Shown one piece after another: positions 546-64,000 of a DNA stretch of 64,000 nucleotides; position 1 is the stretch's first letter, and every line of letters starts with the position of its first letter. The stretch spans positions 27,268,123 through 27,332,122 of the forward strand of contig CP154954.1 in assembly GCA_039621445.1 (NCBI GenBank), in the 5' to 3' direction. A program made the translations under genes and the position numbers. The stretch is from Euglena gracilis. Its lineage: Eukaryota. Under the pieces are notes generated by a model that ran no database searches, was not told the DNA's origin, and saw nothing but the letters and a program-made list of their open reading frames with translations.

Positions 546-636
546 TTCTCGGCCCCTTTGGGGCCAGGAGGACAGAAAAAAAATACATTTTGGTTGTGCC
601 AAGAAAATTTTTTGGCTCGCCCCCCCCGGGAAAAAA

Positions 637-36800: not shown

Positions 36801-39800
36801 AGATGACCAATAGGAGGAGAGGTCAGTCCCCCCCCCCCCACAGCAAGGAGGCATATTTTTGGCAGTTTGTTTCCGTTTCACCCCTTATAAAAAATATGTG
36901 GAATAAGGTGCCATCGCAATAATCAATAATCTGGCATATAATCTTTTGCGGACAAAGTAGGCACCCACCCATCCTCCCACCCGAAACCCACCCCAAAGCC
37001 CAAAAGAAAGGTTTTGAAAAGATTTTTTAGACTTGGCCAAAAGGCCAGGTCAGATTGATTTCCGAACCAGCATCCAAGGAATCGCGACCAATTTCGCCCC
37101 AAATACCCTTGTTTAGGACACTTTTGGGCGATTTTGGTCAGAATTGGTCGCCAATCAAAATGGGTAGATTTTACACTTCTGACGCCATGTTACCCATCAA
37201 TCGAAGCTCTCCTCAAATGCTTTTGACAGATGGCAACAGAATTCAGCCATATTGCACACAGCGCTTATTTTCAGCGATCATGTATCCAAAAATTTGACAT
37301 CTTAATTTGTCAAATTCCAAAGTTCAGGTTCCAGACAGCATATCAATTGAAAGTTCTCCCCAAGACCTTTAGCTTGGTACCCTCAGAACACAGCCACACT
37401 GCACGACGCTCTGAAAATCGGCGATCGCATGTTCCGACCGTATTTGCAAATTCGAAATTCCAATGTTTCACCTGCCATGTTGCCCCTTGATTGAAAGCTC
37501 TTCTCAAGGGCTTAGATTTCAGCCATGCTGCATGGTATTCTATTTCAGAAATTCCACAAATTTGGCCAAAGGGGAATCATTGCACAAAATCCCCAATTTC
37601 TGGCCTAAGACCCCCCAAAACTGCTCACATATGTTTGCCACATGTCTACAAAGCATTTTGGATACTTTTTGGCACTTTTTCTTCTGGGTCCCCAGGGCAC
37701 CGGCTTCACGCCCGAACTAGCGCCCCAGGACGCCAGTTCGGGCGTGAAGCCAGAGCCCCTAGACACAGTTTCAATTTCCAGGATGTTTTGCCATAATTGG
37801 CGTTGTTGCCAATAATTCTTGTACCTTTTGGAAATGTTCGTACTTTTTGCCATAATTTTGCACACATTTAACAAGAATTTTGGAACCTTTTTGAAAATTT
37901 TTGAGCTGTTTTGTCAGAGATTTCGGATTCCATGGTCTGGAAGTTTGAAGCTTTTTCGCAATTTTTTGGGACTTGCCAATTTTTTTGTTCCCTTTTGCCT
38001 GCAGTGTGTTTTTTTTTGGAACGCCTGTCCACCCAAACGCCGGCACAGCTGGCAGCTCGTTCAAAATGAAGCCAAAAAGGGCAAAGACAAAAAAAGACAC
38101 CAAGACAAAAATAACACCACTGAGGGTTGTAGGTGATTTTTTTTTCACTCCAGATGCAAGCCATTTTTTTCATCTTTAGACCATGTGAAGTCAAAGTTTG
38201 GATGGTTTCAACAAGAAAATTGATGATGATGGTCTCAACAAGAAGAAAAAAAAGTGATCGAAGTTGCTGACTTTGTGCATTTTTTTTTGTGTGAATTTGA
38301 CCAAAATTCTGAAATTTTTCATTTTACCCTTGCAATCAAGGTTAATCTGGTCTCATTGTTTTTTTTTGATTTTTTTTTGATATTTTGTTTCCAAAAAAAA
38401 TCATAAGAAATTTTTTTTAAAGGAACAAAAAAATCCAGCTGTGCCGGGTTGAATGCTACACACGCAGCCCGTCGACCAAGAGGGTGTTATCGCCGTCTGA
38501 TCAAGTATTCACTAGATGACATCTTCTGCAGCAAAAACTGCATCTTAGACGCATACTCCGTCCTGAGTCCTGAGTTTTACACACAGGACTCATGACGGAG
38601 TCCCGGGGGGGGGGGGGATCTGCTGGCAGGGCCAGCTGGTGGAAAATCTTTAGAACCCACTTGACCAAAGTGCCCATTTTTGGCAACAAAATCAGCCAAG
38701 AAACAAATTGCCCTCGCCCCCCAGGGTTTGATATAAGGCGGGCGTACATGGTTTAGGTGGGGGGGGGTGTCCCCCCCCCCCCCCCCTCCTGGCCCGCAGG
38801 GGGGGGGGGTCCGGACCACCCTGGGGGGGGGGTACCCGGGACCCCCCAAAAAGGGTCAATTTTTTCCTCCGGCGCTTTGCGCCGATTTTTTTTTGCATTT
38901 TTGGCACATTTTTGCCCAAAAAGTGCCCAAAATGGCACTTTTGGTCGTTTTGGGGGGTCCAAAATTTTCGGTCACCCAGACCGCGCCACTGTTTAGGTGG
39001 GGGGGGTGTCCCCCCACCCTCCCCCCCTCCTGGCTCGCAGGGGGGGTCCGGACCACCCCCCCACCTGTCCTTGTATCGAACCCTGTCGCCCCCCCCAATT
39101 AAGGTTCAACCCCCCCCCCAATTAGCTAATTGGCCTCCGGAGACAAGACGGGCCAACCAATTTCAACAAGGATACCAAAAGGGCCCAGAAACCTCCAAGA
39201 ACGTCCGTTTCGAAAATTTTAAAGTTTGCCAGATAAGAAAAGTCATGACGAATCCCACCATGCACAAAAAATCGACCAATTTTGCAAATTTCAAAATTAG
39301 GTAACCGATATCTCACCCCCCCCCCCCCCTCCATGCTTCAGGCACAAAATGGCCAACCCGGGGGAACAGACATTTGGGGGGGGGGGGTCAAATTTGCTTT
39401 GGGCGCCTTGAGGGGGCAAATTTGGCAAAAGTTTTTGGTCCTTTCAGAAGTTTTGATGGAGGGGTGTTCTTTCATGGTCCATTTCCACCGGGTATGATCT
39501 AATTTGCATCAGCTCTGAAGAGCCGTGGGGTTGCAGTGGTCTGTTCAGAGATTGCACATTTTGTGATTTGTTGGATTTAGAGAGCTTTTGCAAGACGTCC
39601 CAAAAATTTTGGCCGCCAGTGTGAAAATCTTTGCAATGGAATCTCAAAAAATTGCCCACCAGTCTCAAAGATTTTGGTGAAAGGTCTCAGGCGTTTTTAC
39701 AAAAGAGCCCAAAAATATAATTTATAATTTATAATAATTTAATTTAATAATATAATAATTTATAGTTTATATTTATTATTATTGTAATAAAATAATTATG

Positions 39801-42800
39801 GAAAAGTGGTCAACAATTTTGGCAGGAGGTCCCAAAATTGTGAGTGTTGGGTGTGAGTGAGTCCATGTATGGTCCCACAAGGTCGGACCCCCAGGGGAGG
39901 GTCATGGGTGGGTTTGAGCCCAGGAAGTGCCCCGAGTGCGGGTTTTCTGAAATGCATGAGAGTCAGGGCTAAAGTTTGAAAATGGGGTGTCTCATTGAAC
40001 ACATTTTGCGCCAATTTTTTATCAGTTGAGAAATCCCCACCCCCAGGGGCGCTCCATTTTTTAAGGCAGTTTTTTTTTTATGTTTAAGGCATTATTAGCA
40101 TTTTTTTAAGGCTTTTTAAAGCACTTTAAGGCATTTTAAAGCACTACCAAGGGCGGTCCAGGCATCGAAATTCTTTTGAGTTTTGGGTGGATAAACAACG
40201 TTCCAGCAATACCAAAAATCATTTCCTGAGGTGTTAGCTTGTTTTGTCGAGATTTTACGACTTCGTTTTTGCTCGGTTGGAGAGAATTCTGCCAGTCCGA
40301 TTTTTCAAGGCAATTTTTCTTGCCTCAAAATAATAATAATGCCTGGCGGGGTGGTTCCAGAGGATACATTCATTTAACCCCTGTGTGGCCCTCACCCCCC
40401 GGGGGGGGTTGTGAGTGGGTGGGTAAATGTCCGGGGGGGGGGGGTTGTGGTGTGTGGTGTGGGACAGGTTGGTTGTGGTGTGGGGGGGTTGCGGTGTGTG
40501 TGGGGGTTGGGACAGGTCAGCCCAATCCCACCGACGGCAGGGTTGGTCACGAAAATTCTAAGGGTTCTGATTGCTTTTACCCACTGGGGGAGATCCCTCG
40601 GGGTATTTAATGACGTATGGGAAAACGTTGGGGAAACAGGGGTTTGAGGGATGCAGATTTGGTGGCCGTGTGCTTTGGGCCGATCCTGTCAGTGACGCCA
40701 GCGCGACGCTTTGGGGGGCTCTGCGGAGGCGAAGTTAGGGGCGGACCCTCGGTCGCCCCAGTCAAAAATCCACACCGGACCCTGAACACGCCTCCACCCC
40801 CCCCTCCAGTTTCGGAAGGGAGGGTCCCCCCTCCGAGATTCCCATACAAACCCTGGGCAGGGTCGACATAAGGAGGATGTAACCCCCCCCAATAGAAGCA
40901 CGGGTGCGCTTATAGCGGACCACCGCCTCCAGCGGTGGGGTTTGCGCTGCAATTAGGACCCTACCTGTGCGATTTTTGTTGATTTTTTTTCTTCAGAAAT
41001 CCCATCAAAATGGGGGGTGCGATTGCAGTGGACCGCCACCTTCGGCGGCGGGAGGTGCCTTTTTATTTGGACCCTGCACTTGCAGCGGCCCCGCGCTTCT
41101 ATTTGGGGGGGTTTCAGGGTTAGGTGGGGGGTCCCCCTCCCCCCACCTGTCAAGGGGGTGCAGACCGACCCTGGGGGTACCTGGGACCCCCCCCAAGAAG
41201 GTCAAATTTTTCCTTCCGGCGTTTTGCACCAAATATTTTTTTTGCCAAAAATGTGCCCAAAAATTTTTTCGGCTTGGCTCTTCGCCTCCGGCCGAAAATC
41301 AGTCACCCAAACCGCACCACTGTTAAGGTGGGAGAGGTGCCCCCCCCCCCCAATGGCGCTAGACCGGAGGGGGGGTCGGGACCCCCCACCTGCCTTTATA
41401 TCGAAGCCTGGTGGGGGTCGACCCCACCTCCTACCTCCTGGGTGGGGGTCAGCTCCCCCATCCAGGCCTTCCTGTCCAGCCCTGACGGGGGGGGGGGGGG
41501 TTGATACAACACATATGACACGAACCTGGGTGAAGACAGGGTACTAGGGTGGGGAGGGAGATAGGAATGGGGACATTCCTAAAGAGAAGCAGAGGTTTGG
41601 GGTTTTATGTTTGGTACAGGGCTAGAATTAGGGTTTGAATTAGGAGAAGGATTGGGGTTAGCAATGAGATCTGCGAGGGGGTGGCAGGGCAGGGGGGAGG
41701 GCGGGTTCCCGGGTTTGAGCGAGTTCTGGAAACCGAACTCACTGCTGAGGGGCACTCATCCCATTCCATTTTATTATGCGTATGCAATTCACGAAGGCAA
41801 TGAGAACCCCAGAAATAACATCGCAGAAAAAAATCAAAGGGATCATGTCAAACAAATTATTCTTGCTTGTCTGGATCGTTGTGCATCCACGGCAGTCTTG
41901 TTTGCGCACCGTTTTTCTCATTTTGCACATTGTCTTCAGGTGCCCAATGCCACAGCAAAGTATGCTCTTGATTTGTGAGGGATAAACCTCAGTTGGGAAA
42001 ATTGGGGTTTAAGTATCATTTTTTTTTAATTGCTTGTTTGTGCAAGGGTTTCTGCAAGTTGCATAATAATCGTAATTAGTCACAATATGTCGTTATATGG
42101 ATTGTTAGTAATAGTGTTAGGTTTCATTTAGGCTCAAACGTTGACCTAATATTTGGCTTAATTTTCAATCTACCTTTTTCAGAATGGAAGGGCAGCCTCT
42201 TCCACCAGAATCCCTAGACTGAAAACCCAACGTTGCATTTTCCACATTTTGAACTTATCTTGCATTATAAGTTTCGTAAATTCTTTCAGGAAACCTCTGG
42301 CGTTCAAGTTTTGGTGAAAAACCCCCAGAAAAAATCTCTTTGTATTTTTCTTTCAGTATGTACGATCAAAGCAAGCACAGTTCGTGTTTTCAACAATCAG
42401 TCACTGCTGGTGTCATCAAAGGATATTCAGTAAAGTGTTGTTTGTCCTTCCAATGTGTTCACCCATTGCACCCATGGATGGATTTGTACACACATGGAAA
42501 TCAAGTTTATCTTTCAGAAATATCATTGTGACACATGTGCAGGTGTGCAAGGTGTACAACAAAGTCTTGTATCATGACTCGTGTATCATATTTGTATCAT
42601 GGTACAATAGAGTCGATGATGTCAGCGAGAAATATTTCGAAATGCCTGCAAAACACTTTCTGAACGCAGCGTTCTAAATATTCTGTTGTGTGCATTTACA
42701 GGTCCGATGTGGAATTACCAAAAGGAGACTGGGCATGCAAGTGTGGTGAGCGCAACTTCCGCAAAAGGTGATCCTCCTCCCGGCCTACTTTGCTTTTGCC

Positions 42801-45800
42801 TTCTTTTGATTGTCGTGCTTTGATTGCTGTGATGCCCACTCCAAACCTGCAGGGCCAGCTGTCGGCGCTGCAAGGAAATGAACCCACAGCTGGATGACGC
42901 TTTGGAATCGGGGGATTGGGTCTGCCCTTCTTGTTCCGGTGTGTGTGTTTTTATGAGAGTACACAACGCTTATTTCAAATGCATTTTCAAGCAACAGATT
43001 TGTGGGCCAAGACAAACGCAATCATGGGATATGGATCAAGGACCACTAACCACATTCGATAGTTTTGTGTGTAAGTGAATAATGTTCTTGTTGTCGTTTC
43101 CCGATTTCTTTTTTTGTTTCATTGAATGTGCATTTTTTTTCCAAATGTCCAGCCCCTTTTTTTGTTCTTCTGGTGGCGAACTTCCTTCAAAGCAACTGCT
43201 TCCTTCAAAGCAGAAAAAATGGTTGCAGTTTTTTTCCTGCTGGCATAGGTGTGGCGTATTTTCCCATTTCCCCCTCAGTTATCAACTTCGCCACCAAATT
43301 CCAGTGCGTCGAGTGTAAACAGTTTCGACCAGCAGATTCGTCTCCACAACAGAAGTTGCTGCCAGGTGTTCGGTGGGCGGTGTTCCCCCCTCCTTTACCA
43401 GAGGGGTCTGGTACAGGACTCCCCCCCCCCACCTGCCAAGGCCTGTCTGGGCCGACCCAGGGGGGGGGGTTACCCGGGACCCCCCCAAACGGTCAAAATT
43501 TTCTTTCTGATCTTTTGTGTTTTTTATACATTTTTTCATAAATTCTTGCCCAAAAAGTGCCCAAAATGGCATTTTCGACGATTTTTGGGAGGCAAAATTT
43601 TCATCCCAGCTCTTTGTGCCAGGCCGAAATCGATCACCCGGACGACACCTGCCCCCCCCCGTTGTTTTTTTGACCCCCAGCGGCCTGAAAACAGCCAAAA
43701 ATAGTCAGTTTGGCCTTCAAAAATGAGCTGCAACACAGGTCAGGGGTGCAGGCATATGGCGTATGACATTCGGGGGAGATAGAGGGTACATTTCGCCTTG
43801 CCGCCTTTTTTTATAAAAAAAATCAATGTTTTCTCCAGATATTTTGGATTTTTTTTTTAGCCCCAAACTCAGCTTGACAAACTGGCATCGAAAATGGGGG
43901 CGATTGGTCCTACCCAGTTTGGACCCCTTGTCGGCCGAATAACTCGGGCCTGGCAGGGAGTTGGGGGGCAAACAAAGATGTTTCTGAGAGCCAGGATCCA
44001 GTCGCTTGTTTTGGGGGGAGGGGCAGAGCCAGTGAGTGGAAATTTTTTTCCAGTGACCGCCGCGAAACACCAAAAAATTTTGGGACCCCAACAATGGCCA
44101 AAAATGCCCATTTTTTTGGCCGTTTTTGGTATTTTTTTTGAATAAAATCAGCCAAAAAGCCTATTTAAAAAAACCTCATTTCCATCTCGGTGCGCAGTCT
44201 GGAGGATTTTTTTCCTTGTTGGGGGACCCCCCGATCCCCCCTCCCCAGTTAGGGGAGGGGTCGCTGAGCTCTTATCCCTTTGTGTGTAAGAGCGAAGCTA
44301 ACCCCTGGCGAAACCCCCCCCCCCCCCGCCATACCCCCGGGTCGGGGCCACCAGGAGAATGGACGGTTTATCACCATGATCCTGGCCTGGTTCCCGGAAT
44401 TTTTTTTTCAGTTGTGAACGACTGGATTTCTAGTTTCCGAATCACCTGGGTTTGACCCCCCAACTCCCCGCCAGGCCCGAGTTATTCACACGTGAAGGGG
44501 TCCAAACTGGGTAGGATCGGCCCGCCCCCCTTTTAAGCCCCCCCCCCTTTGGACTCTGCCATTTCAGCCAAAAAAATGTCAATTTTCAAAATATCTCCAA
44601 AATGAGGCCAAATCAAAGGAAATGTCCGGAGACCTAATTTGAAGCCCTTGGAATACCCTATCCAGCCATACTTTGATTTCCCCGCAACTCCCCTCCTAGC
44701 CCGAGATATGGCCGTTTTCGGCCAATATGGCCGTTCTGTACACTTTTCCCACTGTTCGACAGCCGTTTTTTGTGGGGGGGGGGGTGGAGGTCAAACAATG
44801 AATGTTTTCAAAATTTCTCGAAAATGATGCAAAATAAGGAAATGTCCTTTGACCTAAATTGAAGCCCTTGGAACGCTCTATCTACTGGTATTTTGGTTTC
44901 CACGCAACTCACCGCCTAGCCCGAGATACGGCCGTTTTTTGGCCAATTTAGGCCATTTTGTACACTTTTTCCACTGTCCGACTTGGCCGTTTTCCGCCAA
45001 AAAAAGTCAAACAAAAATCGAAAAAAAAAATTGCCCGAAACTGTGTTTTTTGGCCTCCCGGACCCGGAAAAGGTGTTTTTTTTTGCAGCGCAGCAGTTAC
45101 CAAACCTACCACCGCCCGGGACCCAGCACCCGACAACAAAACCATTAACCAGCCCCAGTCCCGTAAAGTAGCACCTGGGTAACGGGCGCCCCCAAAAACG
45201 TCATTTTTCGGCCATTTTCATTTTCGGCCGAAATCGGCTGCGTCGGCGCTCCAAAAACGGGCGCTCTGCCCCGGCTAGAGGTCGGCGATCCTTTACCTAA
45301 TTGTTGCGAAGGGCGGCGGGCGGACAGGCCCAAGTTTGCCCGCGGCGGGCGTGCGTAAAACGCAGCAGTTACCGCCCGGGAGGCGCAAATTAGCACGTGT
45401 GTGACAGACGTCCCAAAAACGTCATTTTTCGGCCATTTTCGGCCGAAATCGGCTGCGTCGGCGCTCCAAAAACAAGCGCTCTGCCCCGGCTAGAGGTCGG
45501 CGATCCTTCACCTCATTGTTGCGAAGGGCGGTGGGTGGACAGCGCCCCGTTTCGGGCACAAAACCCTTGCATTTCAGTCAAAAGAGCTCCATGGAGTGGG
45601 CCGGTTTATATGGTGGGTCAATGAAGGGGTGGGTGAGCGCTTTTTACGAGCTCAGCACTATTCAAAACCTGGTCCAGCTGGTCCATTTTTCCAGTGTGTC
45701 CAGCAAAATGGCCGGCCAGTGGACCCCCCTGGTCCTCAAGCAATGGCCTGTTTGTGACTGCACTTTTTCTCGGTCAGAGAAAATTCTGCCAGTCCAATTT

Positions 45801-47727
45801 TTGAGGAATTTAAAGGCATTTAAGGCATTTTGAAGTTTTTAATGTGTTTTAAAAACTTTAAATAACGCCTGGCTGGGGTCCTTGTTTGTGCTCCGTTCTT
45901 CCAACATACCTTGAGGTGGGTGGTTGGGCACCCCCTTTCCCCAGTACTGAGCCTCGCTTTTACTCTTAACAGAAAACACCTCAAACACCCCACCCAGAGC
46001 CCTAACTCTCAGTGAGTGATTGTATTTTTTTGAATCTTATTAAATTAAAGTGGACCTCAAAAAATGAACAAAGTTGAACATTTTTGTTTTTTATATAATT
46101 TTTTCTGCATTTTTTTGAGGTTCCCTGTTGATGTTTTCTACCCCCCTGTCCTGTTCTCAGGAGATTGGATTTGTCCACAGTGCCACCGGCTGAACTTCTC
46201 GGCACGCTTCACTTGCATCTCCTGCTTTGCGGGAAAGGCAGCTGGTACAGCGGCGGATGCACAGGTGAACAGTCTTCTTTATTCATGCCCTCCCATCTTT
46301 TGATATTAGGAAGCCATGGTCCCACTGTCAGCAAAAATTTAGGAAATACAAAAGAATTGAGGTTTCAGATTTGCATTTTTTTTGAATTAGTTAGTTTTTT
46401 TTTTTAAAGCCTCGCCTCACAAAACTGCATTTGCAGCACACTATTCTCTGTATATTGCTTGCTGCCAGGAAATTGCGGTCGGAAATGTTCCCGCTGCTGT
46501 GGCACGCGGGGAGATTTGGGTGCAGACACCGACGCTCCTCTTTGCTGTAACCGATCGTGCTACTTCATGTGCTGCTTCCCATGGTTTTCTGTGGTTTGCA
46601 AATGGATTTTTTGGGTGTCTGTAAGGTGTATGTTGCCATTTGCCGATGGCTTTGCCAACAAGCAACAAAGAGGTGCCAATCTGTGGGTAGTAAAACCCAT
46701 CCAAATATGAAGCCCCCTAAATTTAGAGCTTCCCAAATGAAAGCTCCCCCAGGGTCTGATTTAGCTATTCATGACCCTCCCCCAATGAGTGCTCGGGTGC
46801 GCATTTTTCAGCAACCATTTTTTTTTTGATAAGGACAGTTACAAAACTTGCAAAAAAAAGTCACAAAACAGCAGGGGGCAGGGCTAAACGGGAATCCCTA
46901 CAAGCCGACAGGCCTTCCCGTATTTCCGGGGGCGTTTTAGGTCAAATTTACCTTCGCCTCTTCGGCGCCAAAGAAATTATCTCTGAGCGGGTACCGGGTG
47001 GGGGTCGACCCCCCCACCTCCCGGGTGGGGGGAGTCTAACAACCCCCCACCAGGCCTTCCCGTACACCCGGGTGGGGCACAAGGTGCCTGGGCACTCGGC
47101 CAAGGCATTTCCAGAGCCGAAATGCTGTATGCCCAGAAAGCCCTTCGTTTGGACACTTTTGGGCCCAGACCCAGGCAGACACCCCAGGGGTCGTGCCTGA
47201 CTGCCCAGCATTCTAGGCACCCTGAGACCTCCCCTGCACGGTTGGTCAGATTCCACCTGCCACAGACCAGTGCGGCGAAAGTTCATAGAGCGCAACACAA
47301 ACCCTTTTTACGCAAATACAACCCCCCCCCAAATGCAAAGCCCAACAAGGCGGCGCAGCCCACTGATCCAATTTTTTTCGGCACAATGGCAAAAATGTTC
47401 AGACTTTACCCGGTCCAGGGTGTGTGTTGTTTGTAACACTGTCCTCTTTCCTCTGTCCCCCCCCCCGGCCCTGAAGAAATTCCCTGATTTGATTATGTGT
47501 GACCAGTTTCGGGTTTTGAATTATGGATGTTTTTATATAAGGCATCATCTCACCAAAACTGCTTGTCAGTATCCTGCCATTATTTTTCATGCAAGCCACA
47601 CACCCACACACAAGCATCTAGGTTCCTCTAGCTGTTGGTGCCTGCTGGAGAGTGTTGTGCCTGTGGCGAATCCAATGACTCTCAGATGGTGAAGTGCCAC
47701 AATTGCCGTAGCCGGGGTTTTGTTCAG
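24815..47727 (+). CDS. Multi-exon gene for a protein with tandem RanBP2-type zinc fingers (partial model; 5 intact and 2 degenerate fingers)
   Basis: GT-AG exons with consistent phases: 24815-24928(?), 28337-28401, 34059-34111, 34388-34458, 41940-41959, 42702-42767, 42853-42938, 43279-43365, 46161-46264, 47632-47727(?). These give repeated G(D/E)W.C..C...NF.....C..C. Start and stop not located. Confidence 0.85.
25325..26690 (+). repeat. Dispersed ~1.4-kb intronic repeat, second copy at ~37775-39850
   Basis: Colinear shared blocks, e.g. ggatgttttgccataatt, ccagctgtgccgggttgaatgc, gaatccca..tgcacaaaaaatc, gtcccaaaattgtgagtgt. Confidence 0.8.
38722..39085. mobile_element. hAT-like MITE, 8-bp TSD TCGCCCCC
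   Basis: Ends cagggtttgata / tatcgaaccctg; exact TSD at 38714-38721 and 39086-39093. Related copy at ~48415-48573. Confidence 0.8.
40881..41113. mobile_element. TIR MITE family (aaccccccaatagaagcacg), second copy at ~60269-60502
   Basis: Terminal inverted repeat and colinear internal sequence in both copies. Confidence 0.75.
45190..45545 (+). repeat. Local tandem duplication (~140-bp shared block)
   Basis: cccaaaaacgtcatttttcggcc...gctagaggtcggcgatcctt occurs twice. Confidence 0.85.
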
Positions 47728-49089
47728 GTCTCTGAAGCTATAAAGTGGTTGGTATCATGGTATCATTTGGGAACCGAGGTTTCACACTGGGCTGTTCGTG
47801 GTGGAGGGTCTTCACTGCCCCCATTGGCCCAGCTAAAATGGAGGGGGCAATTGCTTTTTTGTTCCGATGAAGCCCAAAATGGACCATTCTGCGGCAGCCA
47901 GCCAGCCATGGCTTGCTTCCCGGTCTCAGTGGGAACCGGGCAACCCTGCATTTTGTGTTGAGGGATTTTCTCTCCCCACCTCTGGTTGGAGTGGGCCAGC
48001 CTTGTCCATTTGGGGGTGGGGGGGGCGTATATGACATTTCTTTCAAGGAGGCAGAGTGGAGAACGCTTTTTTTGGTTTCCCCAAGGACGTCTGGAAGTTC
48101 TTTCGGTGGTTTGTCACGAAGAGTCTGGGACCACCCCTCTCCCTCCTTCCCTTTATTACCCCTTCTCATTTATTACCCTGCCCCCGGAGAGGAGGTTGGG
48201 TGAGTTGTTTTTCAAAAACAGATTGAAAGTGAAAGTGACAGTAATTGTCGCATGTCTGGGCCATACCATCAATGCTCCAGGCGTATCATTGCTTAAGGTG
48301 TCTCCGATCCCCCCCGACACCCCCCGCAGGGTGGGGTTGGCAAGAAGAGGCCGAAAGTGGCACACCCGGCGCCGAAGGCACTCAGATTTTTTTTGAGAAA
48401 AGTGGCAGGAGTCCCAGGGTTCGATACGAGGAGGGCCAAAAATTAGTCACGTGGATTAAGCTACTGTTTAGGTAAATGGGTGTCCTCCCCACCAAAACAG
48501 TAGCTCGGTCCAGCCCCCCCCCCCCCAGACAAGAGGGGGGCGACCCCCCACCTGCCCTTATATCGAATCCTGCTCCTTACACTTCAAACTTCTCTGCACA
48601 CCGCGGGAAAATTTTTGGAAGGTGATTTTTTGAATGTCGATTGTGCGATGGCTTGGCACTTCACCAGAGATTCCTTCAAGAAATTGCCTTTAAATGCCTT
48701 TTGAATGCAGTTATTCTTTGTTTTGTCAAAAGCTCACGTCAATGAAAGCCAATACTGAAAGGAGGTGGAAGGAGCCAGCCCATTATTGAGTAGTTTCGGA
48801 AAACAACCCTGTTTCCAAATTGAGGTCTGAGGAAAAAGGGTGCATATCAAAAGTAATTTCATATTTTAGAGCTATTACACTTTTTCTGGTTGAGATTTTT
48901 GTGCGGATTGGAACGGTTTGCTTCATCATCAACATTCCGTTGGCATGCCCCGTCAATTTGGCTTCCATGTTGGCGGCAACCAGCTTCTCTTGTACAGTTG
49001 TCCAGCAGCTTTGGAGGGGGAGATCATCAAGCATTACGGTGCATTGTCGAAGCCAGGTGTCATTTGCAAACTCGTAAATCAGAAAGCAC

Positions 49090-52500: not shown

Positions 52501-55500
52501 TTCATTTTGGCCATGCGGGGAGGGGGGAGGGGCACTTTTTTGGTGCAGGGGTTCGGACGCCCCTACGTCTCGTTGTGGCTTCATGGACCTCATGGAGATC
52601 CCAGTCATCACTCTTTGGCCGTTTCCCTTCATCCCTGTAAAGGAGAGCTTGGTTGGATTGCTCTAAAAACGTTCTTGGTTCTTGTGAAATGGTTGTCCTG
52701 TCCTGTCCTGTCAAAACCATGTTCACAAGTGGATTGTGTATTTTTGGGTTACCTCCCAATCCCTCCCCCTCTGACAATTTGGCTTTGGGCATTGAAGGCG
52801 GTGTGCGTCGATTTGTCTGCACCTCCCATGCCTCGACGGGATAACCGTTGGGGGAAAAGAGCTTTGACGACAGGTTGAAAAGAATGGGCAGAAAACATTC
52901 GCCATCCGAATGAGGTTTTGAGCGATTCAAGTTCCGTCCTTTTTTTTTGCAAGAGTCCATGAAGCCTACCACAGTCAAACTCTCATTTTCTCTTCCAAGG
53001 CATCCCTCTTCAAATGGTTTGATGTAATTTTCTAAGTTTAACCCCAGCAACTAAGGAGTGGCATGTCTGGGTGCAGATGGAACCAGAAGAGGAACTTAGC
53101 CAAAATCAAATGTCTGCGCCTCGGAGCAAACAACCCAGAATACCACCAATGGCGATGAAGAATTCCCGATGAAAATGATTGTTGATTTTTTGATGTTGAT
53201 CATTTGATTGATGATTTTGATGTTTTTTTCAAATTGAATTTTACAACCTGGGGTTCTTGCTTGTACAATTCCGTGGGATGCTTGGGATCCCTCCATGCAC
53301 AACTCCACACTCAAAATTGAGGCGATTATGTGCTTTAGTGCCTGGGTGCCTGGTGGCACGTGCCTCCCCTGGGGGGGGTCACGCGGGATTTCCTCCCCTG
53401 AGGTCCTGCATCAAGTTCGATGCATGGGCAGGTTGTGGAGGAGACTCTTTTATATGGTCAATTTTCTTCCAGCAAAGTTCTCTTTGGCCTTGAATAATAA
53501 ACAATTAGTTCCACTGTTCCAATTGTTCACAAATCCCGGCAAAGTCCAGGATTGCCAAAATATGGCTATTTTTGGCCATTTTTTTCTCTTTATGGGTCAT
53601 TTAAAAATTTCTGCTCTGACACACCTCATCCTGCCCCACCTCTGAACGAACCCAGCCTTTTGAGACTGAGAATGGGACAGGGAGGTGGGAAACATTAAAA
53701 AAAAATACATTCGCCTTTTTCAAAATTGTGCAAATTGTATTTTCGCTGTTTGGCAGGGCAAGCGAAATCCGGAGGGCAAGCCCAGCAAGCTCAAGAGAGC
53801 ACGCGAAAGGGCAGGCACAGGTGAAGAAAACAAGCTCAATGAAGAGGGCCGCCCAACGGCAGTGGACACCTCCATGCCGAAATTACGCAAGAAGAAACAA
53901 CCGAAGCCACCGTGACTGCATCACTCTATCTCTCTTTTGCATTCCATTCTGTTTCACTGAAGCGATTGTTTTGATTTTTTTCTGCATTGCGCGCCCATCC
54001 ACAGTGGAGATTAATTCTCATCATGTGCATGTGATGTATTTGAAATTGGGTTTACCCATAATAGCAATGGGTTTCTTTGGGAAGGTGCGGCTCCACGTTG
54101 AATGCGCAAAAGAGATAGTTGGTTTTGCCTGCGAGCTTTGGGAACCCCGCAGCTGTATTTCTGTGAAATATCTTTTGACATCTGTCAGGTGCAAGGCGGT
54201 CCATAAGGGACGGGAATTTTTTTTTGAGGACTGCCCCTTGAGGACCGCCCTTCTGAGGGATGGCCAAGGGCCAAACTGAGATTTGAATGTGGTCAAAAAA
54301 TAAAAAGTCGAAAAGCACATTTTTTTCGATGTCTTTGGGTGGATGGACGATTGTCCAAGGATGCCAGAAATCATCCCCCCCCCTGAAGTCGACCTGTTTT
54401 TTTTTTGCCAAAATATAGCCATTTTCAGCCAATTTTTTTTATGGATTTTCATTGAATGTGCTGGGACAGGAAGTTTTTTTTCCCCACGAAGGACCGCCCT
54501 GTTCAGTGACAAAATGCTGAATTCAGTGGATTTCCAGGAAGAATGCTTGACTGGGTGTGATAATGTTTTCATTTGCAGGTTTAAGTCAAAGATCAGATAT
54601 TGGGGAGGGGGGGGGGTGGCTTGAAAGGAAAAAAAATTGTCGTGGGAAAAATTCCGGACGAAATTTCGTCCAGGATTTTCCCCCTCAAATTTCAGAGAAA
54701 TCCAATTTCCTCCAGTGAACACCCAAAAATTTTCTTTGGCATTTTGTGCCGATTCTTTGAATGTTTTTTTTTGTTGTGCAGTGACATCCAAAATGAAGAA
54801 TATGCTTCAATTCACCAAATTATGCCAAATTTCACCAATTTTTGAACGTTGGATTTGGGAAAACCTCAAGATTTCGATGTGAATTCAGATGGATTTTTTT
54901 TGAAAAATGGGCTCAAGAGAGTCTTTCGTCCAGACTTTCCCCCGGCGTTTTTAAGGATGCATCCAATATTTTTCCTGACAGAAGTTTTCCCGTCAGCAAT
55001 TGTTCCCGGTCAGAATTCCCCCCTCGCTGTGAGTTTAAGAGCTTAAGTGTTGGTTTGATTTCTTTCAGGGCAGTTCATGGAGGATGAGTAGGACCTTTAG
55101 GCCAATGGCCAAAGTGCAGATCTGGAGCTCGAACAAACTCAAGAATAACATAAAGCTGCAAGCAACACAATTTCGTCCTAAGTGGATCGGCGATGGTCCA
55201 AGGATGCCAGAAATCAAATTTTTTCCCGGTGTTGACCTGTTTTCAACGAACAATCCGGAATTTTTTCATCTATTTTCTTGTGGCTTTTTTAGTTGAATTT
55301 TTTGGGTCATTTGTCTTTTGTTAGTCATTGCTTTTATTTTTTCCTCTCATTTTGTCAGGTTGCAATGGCAACGATTTTTTGGGTGTCAAAAAAAAAAAAA
55401 CTCGGTGCTTCGCACAGGTCACTAAATAAATAGCTGGGGTGCATGCATCTCTTTGAGGACCCGGGGGGAGGTTGCTGGGCTAGGGCTAGAAATTTGGGCA

Positions 55501-57395
55501 GGCCAGCCCCCCCCCCCCGGGGATGGGGGCTGGACACCAGGTGGACCTGATCTAGGATGGGCTAGGCCGAAACCGGATACTGCCCCCCAAAAAATAACCT
55601 GCAAAACACAGTTTTGAAGAAAAAAAAGAGCATCTGACAACCCCCAAAACACCCCCAAAACACCCCCAAACCACATTTTGGTGTTTTTTTGAATTTTTTT
55701 TCCAAATATTTTAGGCGCGTTGGACGGAAGATTTTTCGGCTGGACCCTCCAAAAGGGGGCTGACTAGCAGGCTAAGAGCACCCCTCCCCCTGGGGAGTGC
55801 TGCTGCGGGCTGGGCCAAAAACAGGGCTGGCTGCAGCAGCCCCCCCCCCCAGGGTCTACAAAACCTTAAAGAGATGTATGCTGGGGCTCTGGCAAAATCC
55901 ACTGACCGATTTTTAGGCGCTCCAGTCCACCCCCCCCCCCCCCCCAGGGCCCAAAACACACACAAAAAAAAACAACTAAACTCAAGCAGCTCCCATAAAA
56001 CAATTTTGTTGGGGGAACCCATAAATGCCAAATAAGTGGTAAACTGTGGAGAGAACAACAAAAATTGATATGTACACTTTGTCATGATGCCAAAGTTGAA
56101 TGATCGAAAGCCCAAAGCAATGAAAAAGACCCTGGCCAAAATAATAAAGACCCTGCATGTGTAAACCCCCTCCTGACGATGCGATGCATGGTGAAAAAAA
56201 TACTGATTTTTTTAATAAAAAAAAACCAACTCTGAGGCACAAAATAAAAAAATTCCAATTTTAAATTTTCGAAATCTCAATTTGCACTAATTTACAGATT
56301 GCACAAATTTGAAGATGGAATTGAAAAGAAAAAAAATTAATGTTTTTAGGAACCCTAATATTTATTCTTATTGTGGTGCGTGTCGGTCAAGGAAAACTTC
56401 CGAAATAATATCGAAAGATTTGATTGGTGGGTGGGTGGGTGGGTGATCTCTCAAAATAACCTTGCCAAAGCCCCTGCTGCTGCAGCGTTGGTTTGTAATA
56501 CCCCTTTTGCAGACCCATTTACGGACTCATTCACTGCTTTCCCCCGATGCTCCTTTTGAACCATATCCTTTTTTGTTTGTCTTTTTGGTGAGTACTGGTG
56601 CGGTGACTTGTCCTGTGGGCCGGCTGGACAAACGTGCTGACTGGAGAAAAATGGACCCCCCCCCCCGGGAGGTTGGTGGGTGTCCGGCCGATTGGCATCT
56701 GAACCCAGCTGTGACCCCAGAGCAGGCAAAAAGGCCAAAACCCAGCTGGGTTGGCATTTTTTTTTCAGTCAAATTTTGGAGGTGAAAAAACCAGGCCACT
56801 CAAAGATGCCATTGTTGGCCATTTTTTTACCCTTTTTTCAAAAGAATTCTGCGCTGTGCGCCGAAACTCTTCTTCTTCACCAGGCTGAACCCAACTTTAT
56901 TGCAGCGGACGCAGGGGGGGGGGTGTCCCCAGCCTGGCTGGGAGGTGCTGGAACAAAGATGCTGGCTGGCCCCCCAGAAGGTAGGCTCCCCTCCGGCTGA
57001 AGAAAACCTCTGTCATTTTCCTGATCGAAAACCATTTTCATATGGGCGTGAAGCTGGTAGAGATTTTTTTTTCGCAGTTGGGGGAGAACCCCCCAACAAA
57101 ATTAGTGCAGTCTCCTGTTCTTCGACGCCCATTCCCGGTATTACCATATTCACTTTGAGCGTTTTGAAGATCGGGAGAAAAATGAGAACCGGTTTAGCCA
57201 AATGTGAAGTTTCAAGGGGTATTCATCTTCCTGACTCACCACCATTCACCTGGAAGCCCCAAAGGATTTCTATTTCAATACCTTGGAAAGTTGGGCACGG
57301 CGAAGCTTTTTTTCCAATTATGTTTTTTTTTTGAAACGGCACCCTGTCCCGCCCCCCCCCTCCGCCCAGCCCTTGGGTGCCATCATCCGCATTGA

Positions 57396-60300
57396 ATGGC
57401 CGCCTTGGCGAAGCAGATCCTGCTGGCGGCGGACACAGAGGAGTACGACCTGGATGGCTTCGGCCCTGATGACTGTGACGAGCTGGCGGCGGAAGTGTTC
57501 AAGAACCCCATCCCCTGCCCGAAGATGTTCCGGTGTGTGACGGGGCATCACTCCCAGGCGGATTCCTTGGGGCCATGTGCCAAAATCTGACACGTGGGGG
57601 CGTGGGGGCACACTGCCAAAAAGTGTGCGGCAGGCATCAATACACCAGGTGCACAGAATGGGCTGTTTTTTTTTCGGCGTGTGTACGACTGGCCCCCTCC
57701 CCTGCTTTAACCCCGGCGACGAGCTTTATCACTTCTCAATGCGATATTTGGAGGGTTTCACACGGTCTCCTTGAACCTCCTGCATGTTTCACCGAAGACA
57801 GCGGCTCTTTCAGTCACCGGCCTCCGTCTTCTCGGCATTTTCAATGATCTTGGCAGAGTGTGATCAGAGTGGCCAGAGTTACCGCCCCGGGGGGGGGGGG
57901 CGGACATGGCAGGCTTTCAAAGAATTGACCAACAACGTTTTTGCCAGTAGAAAGCGACAGCAAGTAATGTTTTGGTCCGGTCCACCACTGCCTTCGCCTT
58001 TGTGCCTTCTTAGTCGACAGTTTTTGCTTTAGCCCAAGTTGTGCTTTATTTCATGCCGTCAAACCTACCTTCCTTTCTTAGACAGCCCATATCCCTTTAT
58101 GCAAATAACTGCTTTTGAAGATGGTTCAATGCATGAGAAATATGCAATGTGCAAAGTGTATGGAGAGATTTCTACGCCGAGAGGTGAAAAGATTTCCTCT
58201 TCATCTCTATGGCCATGTTTTATGGGATGGGAGTGTCTTGGACTACTCAGGAAACAGATTGCCTCCCACCCCTCCTCTCCTGGCAGGCAAAGGTGGAGGG
58301 GGCAAGCCCGGGACACACAGTGTTTGGGCGACCTGAAGCCTGGAGGGCGGCATTTCTCTTCAAGGACCATCAGCATCTTGTTCATTTTCTTTTTGAGCCA
58401 AAGCCCTTGTGCCCTTTGCATTTCTCTTCTTTCTCAGGGTCACATTCGTTGTTGGTGGCGGAAAGAAGGTCCGACAGAAGTACAGCCCATGCCATGCTTC
58501 CATCTCACCATTTTGCTGCACCCCATGGGAGGAAACGTTTGCATGTCGCTGTTGTGTACAAAGTGTATTCATAGCGAGCCATTCCAGTGGTTTGTGTCTG
58601 TCTTTGCCCTGGATTTGTCATGCATTCCAAAGGAAAGGAGCATGCCCCCGACCTCCCAAAGTTCCTCTCTGATGCGCTGCGGGCTGTCGGGTATGAGGAG
58701 GACAAGGGAGCGGCCGTCTCACTGGACTCTCAGGTCAGTCGACGGTGGTGCATTCTTGAACGTGGAACGATCTGATATTCTTGAAAACCTGCCCGAATAT
58801 GGAACCAGGGGGTCCTTATATTTGGTTGAGGGTTTACCCAGGGGGGGGGGTACAGGAATATTCCTTCGAAATGTTGTGATAATAGCTTCTTTTAGTAAAC
58901 CCAGTGGTTTTTTTTTGGGCCGCCTTTTCTGGGGGGGTGCATTGGTGGCCCCCCAAGCTGGCCAAGTGACCCCCCCCCCTCTGGGAAGCGCTGGCAAGTG
59001 CCTCGGCAGCAGCGCAAGATGGGGCAGTCCCATTTTGTAACCGTCCTCGACAATGATCAGGTCCAAAAATGGTACCCAGGTTGAATTTTGCTTAAAAAGG
59101 TGGAATTTGCGTTCTAAATGGCATTGGGATACACACACATAAACTTTTGGTTGAAAAGGGTCTAGTTTTCCCAACCGCCTTGAGGGTCTTGAAAGTCCCC
59201 CCAAATACAAAACTGTGGGGTACATTTTGGGCGGGGGTGGGAGTGCTATCACAAAGTCATTTGCCGACTAGCCGCCCCTGGTGGGCAAATTGGTTTTTCA
59301 GAGTGACCGATTGTTTTCTGACCCCTCCTCCCCGGGGGGGGGGTCAGCAAAAAAACCACCAAAGGGATTTCTTGAGCCGGTCCCCACCCGATCCTCCGGC
59401 CAACCAGCACATTTTTCCAGCCAGCAGCTCCGGCCAGGCCATGGACCATCGAAGTTGGTGGAGAAAACGGCCAAAATCATGGGGTTGGTCCCATTTGTGT
59501 GACGTGGGGGGGTTGAAAGACACACCCTGTCATACTAGTGGGGCCCCTGGGGGCCCACCAGTATGAGGCTACCAGAATCACTTGAAGAAGGATCCTGGCT
59601 TGTGTGCATCTACATCTGGTCTCCGTCTTTGTCCACAGATCATTTGAGGTTTCTGTTCCTCGCAGTTTGACAGAAACCCAGACAACACCAAACTCTGGTC
59701 TCTGCTCTGGCCACCAATTTTTTTTACCGACCCTCGGGGGGGGTTATTTCCTCTCTTCCCAAAACCAGTCAGACAGTTTTTTTTTGAAAACCAGTCAGTC
59801 TCTATTCCCGGGGGGGGGGGGAGTTGGATCTGGGATCCAAGAAAAAACGACCGCAAACATGAAGAAAGTGAGTTAAATAGTTTGAATAATGAAAATAATT
59901 ATAGAAAGAAAAATTTTCCAGTACTTTCTTGCCGGATTCAGGGTTTTTTTTAAAGCCCTCCCGGGGGGGGGTCAGTCAGCCGGCAGGAAAAAGGTGCTGG
60001 CTGGGCAAAAAAAGTGCTGGCTGGATCCCCCCAGAGGTGTCCACTCCCTGCTGGCTGCTGGCTGGACCTGGCTTTCACCCAAAAACAGGCAAAAAAAAAA
60101 CTCCCAAACCCACCTCGGTTGGTTTTTAGCCAAATTCTGAAGGTGAAAACCCCCCCAAAAAGTTTCTCCGAAATGCCATTTTTAGCAATTTTAACCCCCC
60201 TTTTCCAAAAATTTTCAGCACCTTCCGACTTTTTCGGCCCAACCTGGCTGCACCAAACTCAAAACCTTAACCCCCCCCCAAATAGAAGCACGAGTGCGCT

Positions 60301-63300
60301 TATAGCGGACCGCCGCCTCCGGCGGCGGGGGGTGCGCTTCTATTTGGACCCCAGCCGCGCGATTTTGGTTGATTTCCTTTAGAAATCCCATCAAAATGGG
60401 GGGTGCGCTTGTAGCGGACCGCCGCCTTCGGCGGCGCGGGGTGCGCTTTTATTTGGACCCTGTGCTTGCTTGTAGTGGCCCCGTGCTTCTATTAGGGGGG
60501 TTCGTTCCACTCAATCCCGCCTCCCTGGGGGATTTCGTTGGGATGTTTTGGTAGTTTTATTTGTGCGGATGCGAGTTCTGGATCCCCCATGAAAAAGGAC
60601 TAGGGTTTGGGACAAGGAATAGAGTCAGGGCCTAAATCCATAACCCTGGCCCCTATCCTTGTCTTCAACACCATTCTTCCGAATCGGTATCCGGAAAATC
60701 AACTGAAACCCAGTGAAATAAGGTTGATTCCCGGGACCACTAAAATCCGGGTACCGGTGCGCCATGCTTTGGGTGACGGGTCCGGTACCAGGCCCCCCGT
60801 CATACTTAGTATGAGGCTGCCGTGTTTCTTTCAGTTGATTTGTCCCGACCACATGCATCCCAGATGAACCTCCTTGAGTTGTGAAAGGCCGATCAATTAT
60901 GGTACAGTAATAATTTCAGTGGTTAGTTTCCGATTTGAGCTATTTGTCCATCCAAACAGAAGCTGCATCTGATGCCTCCCATTTCCTCACACGTGCAGGG
61001 CAAGTTCAAGTATCAGCATGACACAGGAAAGGATTTGAAATACATCCATGTGTTCCCCTTCGTCAAAATTCAAGAAGAATCTGACGGCACCATGAGGATC
61101 GCTGGTGTGCAGTGATACGCAAGGTGCATGCGATGCTTTGTTTTTAAAACCCATTTCTCAAAGGATTTAAAAGTCAATGTTTGTGCTCATCGTCCGAGTT
61201 GGTGCACCTTTCTCCCAAACACCGAAAAGTTTTATTGCATATGGTTTGAGATTTGCATTTGGAATGTATTCTCAGCAGCTTCCCGCAGGGGAACCTAGGC
61301 CCCTGGGACTGGGCCCAGCCGGAGGTCAAACGGGGTACCAAAGAATCAAAGCTGAAAAAATGCCTCAAAAATGCCTGCAAATGAAGCAAAAAAAATGCTC
61401 TGTTTACCAAAAATTTGAGCTGGGCAGCCTTTCCAACTGTTTATTTTTTTGCTCATTTGATCCATCTCATTTGGTTTCAGATGGGTGCAGGGCGTCCACC
61501 TCCTGGTCTGCACGGACCCACGCCCACCAAGGCTTTTGCACTGGAAAATGTTCATAATGGACTTAAATGAACCAAAATTAAATTTTGGGGTGGTGAGGGG
61601 GGTGGGGACATAAGTCGGCCAGGGCACTTTTTCAGTGGGGGGCCGTCGCCCCCGGGGCACAACGCAGGCTGAAAATTCCCCAACAAACCCTTGTGACATT
61701 TTTTTTGTGTTTCTGTTGCAGGGTATCGAGTGGATGACATGCCCCCCGAGATCAAGTGCACGCTGTGCGAAATGGAAACCTTCAAGGACCTTGTGAAGCA
61801 GAAGTGCCCCACCTTCACGCAGGTCTATTGCATGATCACTTCTCTTGTGCATTTCGTTTGTGGGATTGCTTAATCTCAGTCGAAGTTGTGTGGTATGGAT
61901 CCTTGCACTGCGCACAATTGTTCTGGGTTTCGCGCACGTTAACAAGTGCCAGTTTTTTCCCCACGTCAACGGCCAATTGCCAGCTGGGGATCACAGTGCC
62001 CCCCCTTTCTTGTTCGGTCGACCTGCCTCCCGGTCCCCCCGAACACACAATCAAGGGGGGGACAATCATGGGGCACCAAGGGAAAAGTCAAGGCACGGCC
62101 AAGACAAAGAACCTTCTGTCGGTGGTTCCCAGGGACAACTGGGGGGGGGGCAATGGGGGGTATTTCCAACTCTTCATTTGTCCCCACTGACTTTCCTTTG
62201 TATCCGGTCGCTGAAGGACGACTGGCTGGTTTTTTTTTTGATTTGGTGGACGCCAATCGGGGAAAAAAAACGTGCGAACATTTAGGCAAAAATGGGCTCG
62301 AAATTCGGCTGCCTCGCCCAAAATTTTTGGTTTTTTTTTCCATCCTTTCAGTTGTCATTATATATTAAAAATATTATTATTGCCATTCAAAATTCTGTAT
62401 TTTTATCACATATTGGTATTGTTATTGTAATTTTATTATTATGTTATTTATGCATATAAACCTACATTAGATCTCAATTGGTTTTGTCTCAAGGAAGGAC
62501 AACTGAATTGAGACCACCCACCACTCTCAGTCAGTCACCAGTCGGAAACCACCCCAGCAGTTACCCCCCTAAAACCCCGCCAGGATATGCACCATGGCGG
62601 GGCGAACCCCCACCACTGGGGGTTGATGGATGGCCCGACCGAACCCTTTGGGCCGCCTCCCCCCCCCCCCCCGGGTCGTCCTCAGAAGCGCTGCCTTTTG
62701 AAGGCCATGAAGGGCGTCCAGGGCCGCTTCGAAGAGTTCGAGCAGCGCATGGCCGCCCTGCGGCCCGGCTGCTTTGTGGGGGCGGGCCCACTGACGGGGC
62801 CGGGGCCATTCCCTGCCGTGGGGGGGGGGTAGGACGGCCCAAGGTTGGCCTGGAGGGACCTCGCCCAACCTCCACCCACCGCGTTTCCAACCCGGGGTTC
62901 CCTTAAGGTGGAGGGGACCCTACCCCCTGGGGGGGGTCCAGCCAAGCCAGCACCGTTTTTCCAGCCAGCACCTCCCAGCTTGGCTGTGGACCTCCCCCCT
63001 CCCCCGGGTCCGCTGAAACAAAGTTCGGGGAAGCCCGGCGAAGCCGGGCAGGACCGAATTTTTTTTGGCGTCACGCCAGAAATTTCGAGAATGCCCCAAA
63101 AGGCATTTTTGGGTCCTTTTTGGGGTTTTTGCCTCCAAATTTTGGCTGAGTAATGCCAACCTGGCTGCATTTGGGCTTTTCCGGACATTTTTTTGCGTAC
63201 CTGCCGAGTCCGGCTCCCAGCCGGCCGGAACCCCCACCCCACCCCTGGACCCCTACCCCCCAGTGGGGGGAGTCCAGTCAGCACCTTTTTTCCCAGCCAG

Positions 63301-63533
63301 CACCTTTTTCCAGCCGGCCCACAGGACCCCCCCACGCCCTTAAGAAAACACCTGTTCCCAACTGTGCCTGGCCGCAAAGGAGCCGGGGGGTAGCCGTTGA
63401 CGGCCGAGGAGCAGGAGCTGTATGAGGGGCAGGTGGCCATGGGCAGGGCAGGCTGAAGTGGGGGGGGGGGACAGTCGTCAGTCTGCTCTGAGGAAGGCTG
63501 AGAAGATGGACGACCTGACCAAGCAAGTGCAAG
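57396..63533 (+). CDS. Uncharacterised protein gene, at least 8 exons, probably continuing beyond the window
   Basis: Exons 57396-57532, 58438-58489, 58650-58733, 60999-61104, 61722-61822, 62686-62761, 63392-63426, 63491-63533 splice in frame: MAALAKQ..VTFVVGGGKKVRQKYSPDLPKFLSDALRAVGYEEDKG..GKFKYQHDTGKDLKYIHVFP..MAALQPLTAEEQELYERKAEKMDDL. From memory it resembles a conserved protist protein; not verified. Confidence 0.85.
58490..58649 (+). other. Euglenid nonconventional intron
   Basis: No GT-AG at these ends; catgcttc (+4 onward) pairs with ggagcatg (to -6); removal gives KYSP|DLPK. Confidence 0.7.
62762..63391 (+). other. Euglenid nonconventional intron
   Basis: Y|R...Y|R junctions; ccggctgctttgtgg pairs with ccgcaaaggagccgg in the +4/-6 register; removal gives MAAL-Q-PLTAEE. 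Confidence 0.85.
63427..63490 (+). other. Euglenid nonconventional intron (64 nt)
   Basis: CAG at +4..+6 and CTG at -8..-6 with an extended stem; removal gives ELYE|RKAEK. Confidence 0.75.
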
Positions 63534-63594
63534 GTGCGCCATTGCAGTCCCGCCCACAGAACGGACAAGCTGTGCAGCCATACTCTCATCATAG

Positions 63595-63814
63595 CAGGGG
63601 TTTTTTTTCTTGGACCCCGGGGGGGAGGGGGGGTAGGGCAGGTGGGTCCGGCCGAGACCCCCCCCCGGGGGATATACTTTTTGGCGCCGAAATTTTTTGA
63701 AAAGGGTGCTATTTTTAGCATTTTTGCAATTTTTGGCCATTTTGGGGGAAATGTTGGTGGGTCCCCCCCCCCGACCTCTCCAGGCCCCCTCCCCTCAGTC
63801 TTAAAAAACCCCTG
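63595..63814. mobile_element. hAT-like MITE, 8-bp TSD CATCATA(G/A)
   Basis: Ends caggggtttttt / aaaaaacccctg; same family as 297-545. Confidence 0.8.
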
Positions 63815-64000
63815 CATCATAATTTTGTCCCTTGCTCCAACGTTTTCTGATTTTTTTCTTTGCCTCTGCCAATGCGTTACTCATCTTCCTCCTCGGTGGC
63901 AACAGGACCGAAATGCTCCCCCCCCCCCCGGCTCTGATGCCAGAGGCTCCACAGAGGCAACCAATTTTGTTTGCAGGCATGTCTGAAAAAAAAAACCAGG

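Follow-up and report, generated by a model that had tools for sequence, protein, structure and literature searches.

CAG...CTG-ended miniature transposable elements with 8-bp target-site duplications in Euglena gracilis as plausible generators of nonconventional introns

The origin of the nonconventional introns of euglenids and the mechanism of their removal are long-standing questions, which a 64,000-nucleotide stretch of the Euglena gracilis genome raises in a concrete form (GenBank assembly GCA_039621445.1, contig CP154954.1, positions 27,268,123–27,332,122, forward strand; hereafter the window, in whose own coordinates all positions are given). The window holds several transposable elements of the miniature inverted-repeat type (MITEs) that begin with CAG, end with CTG or a variant and are flanked by target-site duplications (TSDs) of 8 bp. 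Could such elements become nonconventional introns when they land in an exon? A MITE origin of these introns, mentioned in the first-pass annotation of the window, was proposed as early as 2014 (Milanowski et al., 2014, PMC3935182; 2016, PMC4770533), and a 2024 review describes the repeats at intron junctions as "TSD-like" and reads the CAG/CTG motifs as terminal inverted repeats (TIRs) (PMC11282704). These papers deduce the MITE source from features of the introns; in 2014, euglenid transposons were not yet known. In the window, by contrast, MITEs are observed directly, but not as introns. What is new is a set of concrete candidate source families and the link between the 8-bp TSD and the 3- and 5-nt spacers of the introns, whereas the idea of a MITE origin is not. 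We consider it fairly probable that these are non-autonomous cut-and-paste MITEs of at least three related families, likely mobilized by a hAT-type transposase, and plausible sources of nonconventional introns. The MITE-origin idea becomes simply testable with families that have suitable ends and a TSD as long as the two spacers together.

Four CAG-ended elements with paired TIRs and 8-bp TSDs had been reported in the window, and each is present where it was placed. The duplicated 8-mers lie flush with the element ends and agree at 8 of 8 positions in two elements (M2, M3) and at 7 of 8 in the other two (M1, M4). The 3′ ends had been described as CTG or a variant, and two of the four are indeed variants (ATG, TTG). 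The copies considered here are as follows.

297–545, MITE M1 of family A, 249 bp, ends CAG/ATG (CAGGGGTTTTTTT...CCCATG), inserted in a Ty3/gypsy element; TSD at 289–296 (GTCTCGGC) and 546–553 (TTCTCGGC)
38722–39085, MITE M2 of family B, 364 bp, ends CAG/CTG (CAGGGTTTGATA...CGAACCCTG), inserted in another repeat; TSD at 38714–38721 and 39086–39093 (TCGCCCCC on both flanks)
49090–49511, MITE M3 of family C, 422 bp, ends CAG/TTG (CAGGCTCTTGCTTAAGG...CCTTAAGCAAAAGCTTG); TSD at 49082–49089 and 49512–49519 (GAAAGCAC on both flanks)
63595–63814, MITE M4 of family A in the orientation opposite to M1, 220 bp, ends CAG/CTG (CAGGGGTTTTTTTT...AAAAAACCCCTG); TSD CATCATAG and CATCATAA
62892–63354, MITE M7, related to family C, 463 bp, ends CCG/CTG; TSD TTTCCAAC and TTCCCAAC, 7 of 8
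50513–50886, MITE M8, 374 bp, ends CAC/CTG; TSD GGGGTGAC and GTGGTGAC, 7 of 8
60861–60971, candidate element M5, 111 bp, ends CAG/CTG; flanks ATGCATCC and ATGCCTCC, 7 of 8
48415–48572, copy of family B, 158 bp, good CAG...CTG inverted ends; no TSD (2 of 8)
41115–41410, internally deleted copy of family B; flanks agree at 5 of 8, with no clear TSD
51872–52327, copy of the M7-like family, CAG...CTG ends; no TSD (1 of 8)

Families A, B and C have 2–4 copies each in the 64 kb, with TIRs of 12–17 nt and no coding capacity, and sequence comparison within the window places M1 and M4 in a single family. The nine TIR-defined copies measure 158–463 bp. The 5′ terminus is CAG in M1–M4 and in candidate M5 and varies in M7 (CCG) and M8 (CAC); apart from M8, the families start with CAGG. 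Their small size, lack of coding sequence, multiple copies, TIRs and 8-bp TSDs mark the elements as MITEs. Consistent with this, DNA word depth over bins that contain them is ~16,000 to 520,000, compared with ~60–300 in unique bins. M7 was first spotted by eye and later recovered by the TIR/TSD scans (score 10). The ends of M8 were placed by visual inspection, with the TSD already known, and are therefore not independent of it, and the scans of the window did not recover this copy. Candidate M5 is uncertain because a second copy is absent from the window and its terminal stem is weak.

The duplications were examined in several ways. A scan that ignores which letters form the ends (TIR of at least 11/14 and flush 8-mer of at least 7/8) yields 80 rows, a good part of which are low-complexity or come from a 19-bp tandem array, and recovers all four elements of the first-pass annotation. 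Matches with a score of at least 12 number 8 at the true register and 2–5 at nine shifted control registers; those in which both ends start with CA number 4, compared with 2, 0, 0, 1, 3, 0, 1, 0 and 1 in the nine controls. Given the high background of this generic scan, more weight is placed on pairs defined by motif, on the register and on empty sites. When ends are defined by the TIR motif alone, five complete pairs are found, and four of them have flush repeats of at least 7/8; the chance of such a repeat is 3.8e-4 per pair, and the overall chance is ~1e-13 by our own arithmetic. Six of the nine TIR-defined copies have flush 8-mers that agree at 7–8 of 8 positions, and in these six the agreement reaches 7–8 only at the flush register, falling to 0–6 at 12 outward shifts and 6 offsets. 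Two insertions also have paralogous sites at which the element is missing.

23270–23420, empty paralogous site for M1, with the 8-mer present once
25821–26080, empty paralogous site for M2, with the 8-mer present once

A model of the empty M1 site (left flank with TSD joined to right flank) matches 23270–23420 at 116 of 130 columns, and the junction is free of gaps. The M2 site is less clean than that of M1, as the filled copy holds ~25 extra nucleotides past the junction. The observation of MITEs with 8-bp TSDs is thus confirmed and extended. The Ty3/gypsy polyprotein into which M1 is inserted near the start occupies 220–6449 (protease, reverse transcriptase, RNase H, integrase), and a related gypsy copy without M1 lies at ~23230–23420.

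The code of nonconventional introns has been established by knock-in mutagenesis and synthetic introns as N3-CAG...CTG-N5(6)/purine, where the slash marks the exon border, or more generally as C[not C]G...C[not G]G with paired ends and N3 and N5–6 spacers (PMC12501133). CAG and CTG are each essential, such that single substitutions abolish splicing; the 5′ spacer has to measure 3 nt and the 3′ one 5 nt, although 6 is accepted; the downstream exon preferably opens with a purine; pairing of ~12 bp beside the motifs is needed; and fully synthetic 50-bp introns that carry nothing beyond these features are spliced (PMC12501133). The offsets of 3 and 5 nt that the first-pass annotation had assigned to CAG and CTG agree with this code, and its arithmetic, by which they add up to one 8-nt TSD copy, is correct. 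Euglenid nonconventional introns and the window MITEs share paired CAG(G)/(C)CTG ends and a length of 8 nt, present as 3-nt and 5-nt offsets in the introns and as the TSD in the MITEs. With the cuts placed 3 nt ahead of CAG and 5 nt past CTG, the element is lost together with exactly one copy of the TSD, and the original 8-mer is rebuilt. A MITE in the arrangement 8-mer-CAG...CTG-8-mer supplies every feature of the code but the purine, which corresponds to TSD position 6 and therefore depends on the target site and not on the element.

The elements insert with an 8-bp TSD, and once transcribed their CAGG...CCTG-type ends are predicted to pair from the first base. On the proposed route from MITE to intron, the nonconventional-intron machinery of Euglena would cut an exonic copy 3 nt upstream of the paired CAG and 5 nt downstream of the partner CTG. 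Excision would keep TSD positions 1–5 from the left copy and 6–8 from the right one, so that the reading frame is back in its original state. A comparable route is that of the introner elements of Micromonas and other algae, which, like the window MITEs, are short DNA transposons with TIRs and TSDs; where one of them inserts, a removable intron arises and the TSD becomes part of the splice junction, as is proposed here (PMC11282704). Introners have 3-nt TSDs and are spliceosomal, taking one splice site from the element and one from the TSD (PMC11282704), whereas removal of the window MITEs would follow the non-spliceosomal CAG/CTG helix rule, with cuts inside both TSD copies. If the proposal is true, a non-spliceosomal case is added to the introner route of intron gain. 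In a literature search of partial coverage, without supplements, no paper beyond those cited linked Euglena, hAT elements or 8-bp TSDs, and introns, and within that coverage none named source MITE families, a superfamily with 8-bp TSDs or the relation between 3 + 5 nt and the TSD.

With the TSDs taken as spacers, CAG and CTG are both intact only in M2, M4 and candidate M5, in which 8–10 of the 12 adjoining bases are complementary. TSD position 6 is a purine in three of seven copies on the plus strand and in three of seven on the minus strand. When whole elements are folded as RNA by minimum free energy, the first base is predicted to pair with the last in five of ten copies (M1, M2, M3, M4 and 48415–48572), and the predicted stem of M3 and M4 also includes the last flank base.

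Nonconventional introns and host genes were modelled in the RNA-covered region (44001–64000, 20 kb) using three public RNA runs and one DNA run; exon and intron models were built from loose read ends, bin depth and sequence. Two expressed genes hold the copies of this region.

43324–53915, plus strand, gene A, expressed, with RanBP2-type zinc-ribbon exons (matches below the cut-off)
57369–57370, plus strand, trans-splice acceptor of gene B, marked by the RNA loose end ATTTTTTTTC
57370–57532, plus strand, exon of gene B, followed by a GT-AG intron
58438–58489, plus strand, exon of gene B, followed by the nonconventional intron 58490–58649
58490–58649, plus strand, nonconventional intron I2 of gene B, 160 nt, exon/TGC-CAT...ATG-CCCCC/G-exon
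58650–58733, plus strand, exon of gene B, followed by the GT-AG intron 58734–60998
60999–61104, 61722–61822 and 62686–62775, plus strand, exons of gene B
62776–63393, plus strand, inferred GT-AG intron of gene B
63446–63491, plus strand, candidate nonconventional intron, 46 nt, GGG-CAGGCTGA...TCAGTCTG-CTCTGA, proposed from reading-frame continuity only and able to slide over AGG
Last modelled exon of gene B, plus strand, ending at an RNA-supported GT donor after 63533

The loose end ATTTTTTTTC stands directly before 57369 in 27 reads (X21) and 20 reads (X22) and equals the spliced leader (SL) of Euglena gracilis at its 3′ end, as quoted in PMC4778363, which, with an SL-bearing retrocopy described below, identifies the window as nuclear DNA of a Euglena; bin depths agree with the gene B model. 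The removal of intron 58490–58649 is supported by 17 RNA reads (X22) that end at 58489 and continue with letters matching 58650–58670. Its borders (TG...CC) allow no sliding, the downstream exon begins with GAC, and its ends pair over eight base pairs from +4/−6. Coverage of the bin 58008–58674 fits 77 exon nucleotides at ~100-fold and not 237 nt, as expected if 58490–58649 is removed. The N3/N5 geometry therefore holds in this genome, here in a CAT/ATG variant. The first-pass annotation had counted three introns without a clear TSD; this count is not reproduced, the models giving one RNA-supported intron and one inferred candidate, and the absence of a TSD stands for both.

The MITE copies of this region were placed on the gene models. 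Every intron of gene A that could be delimited is of the GT-AG type, and two of them hold MITEs: M3 starts 33 nt into a modelled intron whose GT donor follows 49056, and M8 lies inside another. In gene B, M7 is inside the inferred intron 62776–63393, M4 is 61 nt downstream of the GT donor after 63533, and candidate M5 is inside the intron 58734–60998. M3 was considered as an exonic insertion and rejected: the frame is open through the TSD, but RNA depth drops to ~0.7 beyond it, and a GT follows 49056. In gene A the RNA reads differ from the window at 1–5% of sites and thus come from another strain or allele. Pfam searches of ten exon translations gave zinc-ribbon matches below the cut-off in two and nothing in the other eight. 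A search for a transcript-derived protein of gene B with its first exon (45 aa) scored none of six candidates. According to these models, the window copies are bystanders, located in GT-AG introns, in other transposons and in spacers.

CAG-like termini are typical of hAT elements. hAT elements such as Hermes have 8-bp TSDs with a weak target pattern, nTnnnnAn (PMC10368747, PMC2803484), and the window MITEs resemble Hermes and hobo in TSD length and in their short TIRs. In the window, T is present at position 2 in four of seven TSDs and A at position 7 in four of seven. Many Hermes TSDs end in AC, as do three of the seven in the window (P ~0.007); six of the seven end in C. The window elements differ from Hermes and hobo in that they follow the nTnnnnAn pattern only partly. 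A hAT-type transposase is most likely the mobilizer, and the elements are termed hAT-like, not proven hAT, since the ten longest open reading frames of the window show no transposase and TSD length and end motif are the basis of the assignment. An Rfam search of the window gave no matches. The 17-nt end of M3 matches 42 metagenomic loci, in none of which (0/42) does similarity extend past 21 nt, so that these are chance matches and not euglenid copies.

Beyond the ends of individual elements, the junctions of nonconventional introns have a consensus of their own. Positions +7/−9 are G/C in 31 of 55 published introns, corresponding to CAGG/CCTG ends, and junctions are pyrimidine/purine at both ends, with A at exon position +2 in 43 of 55 and C at +3 in 30 of 55. 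This Y/R(AC) consensus may reflect a single duplicated 8-mer (NNNNY/RAC) seen twice; the AC and C endings of the seven window TSDs point the same way, and with so small a sample they are a lead only. A further point of support is the gapC intron of Euglena agilis, which carries eight-nucleotide direct repeats at its junctions, the longest among the introns studied there, and which occurs in one strain only and is therefore a recent gain (PMC4770533). A broader claim is more doubtful than the generator role itself: it is conceivable, though we lean against it, that most Euglena nonconventional introns (which make up ~70% of all E. agilis introns) are fossil hAT-type MITEs, that non-spliceosomal excision is tuned to the product of hAT insertion, measuring 3 and 5 nt outward from the paired CAGG/CCTG ends and so deleting element and one TSD with no scar left, and that Y/RAC is a target-site footprint seen twice and not only a splicing signal. 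If that is true, the exon-side consensus has to be reinterpreted as a target-site footprint.

Several observations weigh against the MITEs as intron generators. Each of the five copies in the 20 kb with RNA coverage (M3, M8, M7, M4 and candidate M5) lies in a modelled GT-AG intron and none is exonic; absence from mRNA combined with borders other than GT-AG is found for intron 58490–58649 and for none of these five. That intron matches no MITE family and occurs only once in the window, the 8-mers in its register share 4/8 positions and those of the candidate 63446–63491 share 3/8, and no intron body in the window matched a MITE family. The CAG/CTG motif is broken in four of the six firm copies, namely M1 (ATG), M3 (TTG), M7 (CCG) and M8 (CAC), and the first exon base would not be a purine for M2 in either orientation, nor for M3 and M4 when these are read in the direction of the host gene. 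The blind scan rises only modestly above its shifted controls, the background being high in repeat-rich DNA. The hAT assignment is based on TSD length and end motif; both nTnnnnAn positions are satisfied in just two of seven TSDs, and Pfam searches of the ten longest open reading frames (ORFs) of the window gave gypsy domains only and no hAT transposase. Moreover, the symmetric junction consensus could equally reflect a preference of the enzyme, and the authors who described the gapC repeat read it as a trace of double-strand-break repair (PMC4770533). Taken as a whole, the interpretation in the first-pass annotation is a sound and sharpened version of a published hypothesis and is partly supported.

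The most serious alternative is coincidence: the elements would be ordinary hAT-like MITEs with no role in introns, the introns would have another source, such as break repair or unrelated sequence, and CAG...CTG with its 3- and 5-nt spacers would reflect a need of the excision enzyme. The lack of exonic copies in the gene models, the local nonconventional intron unrelated to MITEs and without a TSD, the broken motifs and the break-repair reading all speak for it. So do the CAG-type ends, a general trait of hAT elements. The same applies to TSDs of 8 bp (PMC10368747, PMC2803484). Coincidence would nevertheless have to bring together four independent features, namely CAG/CTG, the G/C at the fourth base, spacers that sum to the TSD, and Y/R at both junctions, and the newly gained gapC intron carries a repeat of exactly eight nucleotides (PMC4770533). 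We regard coincidence as unlikely, though as a serious contender, and retain the reading of the MITEs as plausible intron generators.

An origin of the elements from another superfamily with 8-bp TSDs (Merlin or P-like) would leave room for the link to introns and make only the hAT partner wrong. E. gracilis itself harbours Merlin families that make 8-bp TSDs (PMC8101967), and no hAT transposase was seen among the ten longest ORFs of the window. The Merlin elements share host genus and TSD length with the window MITEs, but the TIRs of all Merlin families, those of E. gracilis included, begin with GG (PMC8101967), whereas the window families start with CAG and every window copy begins with C; this alternative is improbable, and a hAT-type mobilizer remains preferred.

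The direction of descent could also be the reverse, with excised circular introns copied back into DNA and the "MITEs" as their descendants. Nonconventional introns leave as full-length circles (PMC11282704), and an SL-bearing retrocopy in the window indicates that reverse transcription takes place in this genome. Under the N3/N5 rule an excised intron would carry 3 + 5 nt of flank, whereas the window copies stop precisely at CAG/CTG, and newly made 8-bp duplications of unrelated targets, accompanied by clean empty sites, are a transposase signature, so that descent from introns is very improbable. A reading in which inverted and direct repeats arose by chance in low-complexity DNA, with no mobile elements involved, can appeal to the high background of the generic scan but is already refuted, in our judgement, by the empty sites, the family copies and the register-specific 7–8/8 matches.

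Other features of the window bear on the scans and on its repeat content. A match at 16922–18025 (TIR 14/14, TSD 8/8) was rejected as an artefact of a 36-nt palindromic unit that occurs as a direct repeat at 16900–16935 and 18012–18047, flanking an ORF at 16919–17743. This ORF resembles another at 18808–20214, neither of which has a Pfam match, and together with the flanking direct repeats (16900–18047) it forms an unclassified mobile element that mimicked a TIR and TSD match. The tandem array that floods the TIR/TSD scans is located at 20624–21053 and consists of ~22 copies of a partly palindromic 19-bp unit.

The retrocopy mentioned above is on the minus strand. At 11380–11530 an SL-like stretch is joined directly to a 5′ untranslated region and an ATG-led ORF; the full leader-like stretch fused to the ORF occupies 11506–11530, and over its final 12 nt it is identical to the E. 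gracilis SL end (PMC4778363). The arrangement looks like a processed, SL-bearing mRNA retrocopy.

The window as a whole is rich in repeats, many of them with runs of G or C. Units of 220 bp and 215 bp, each present about twice at 44583–44982 and 45219–45552, have a DNA word depth in the millions, indicating a very abundant repeat. A further repeat family with GC-rich hairpins adjoins truncated MITE copies at 40883–41083 and 60273–60489 and may be a nested mobile element.

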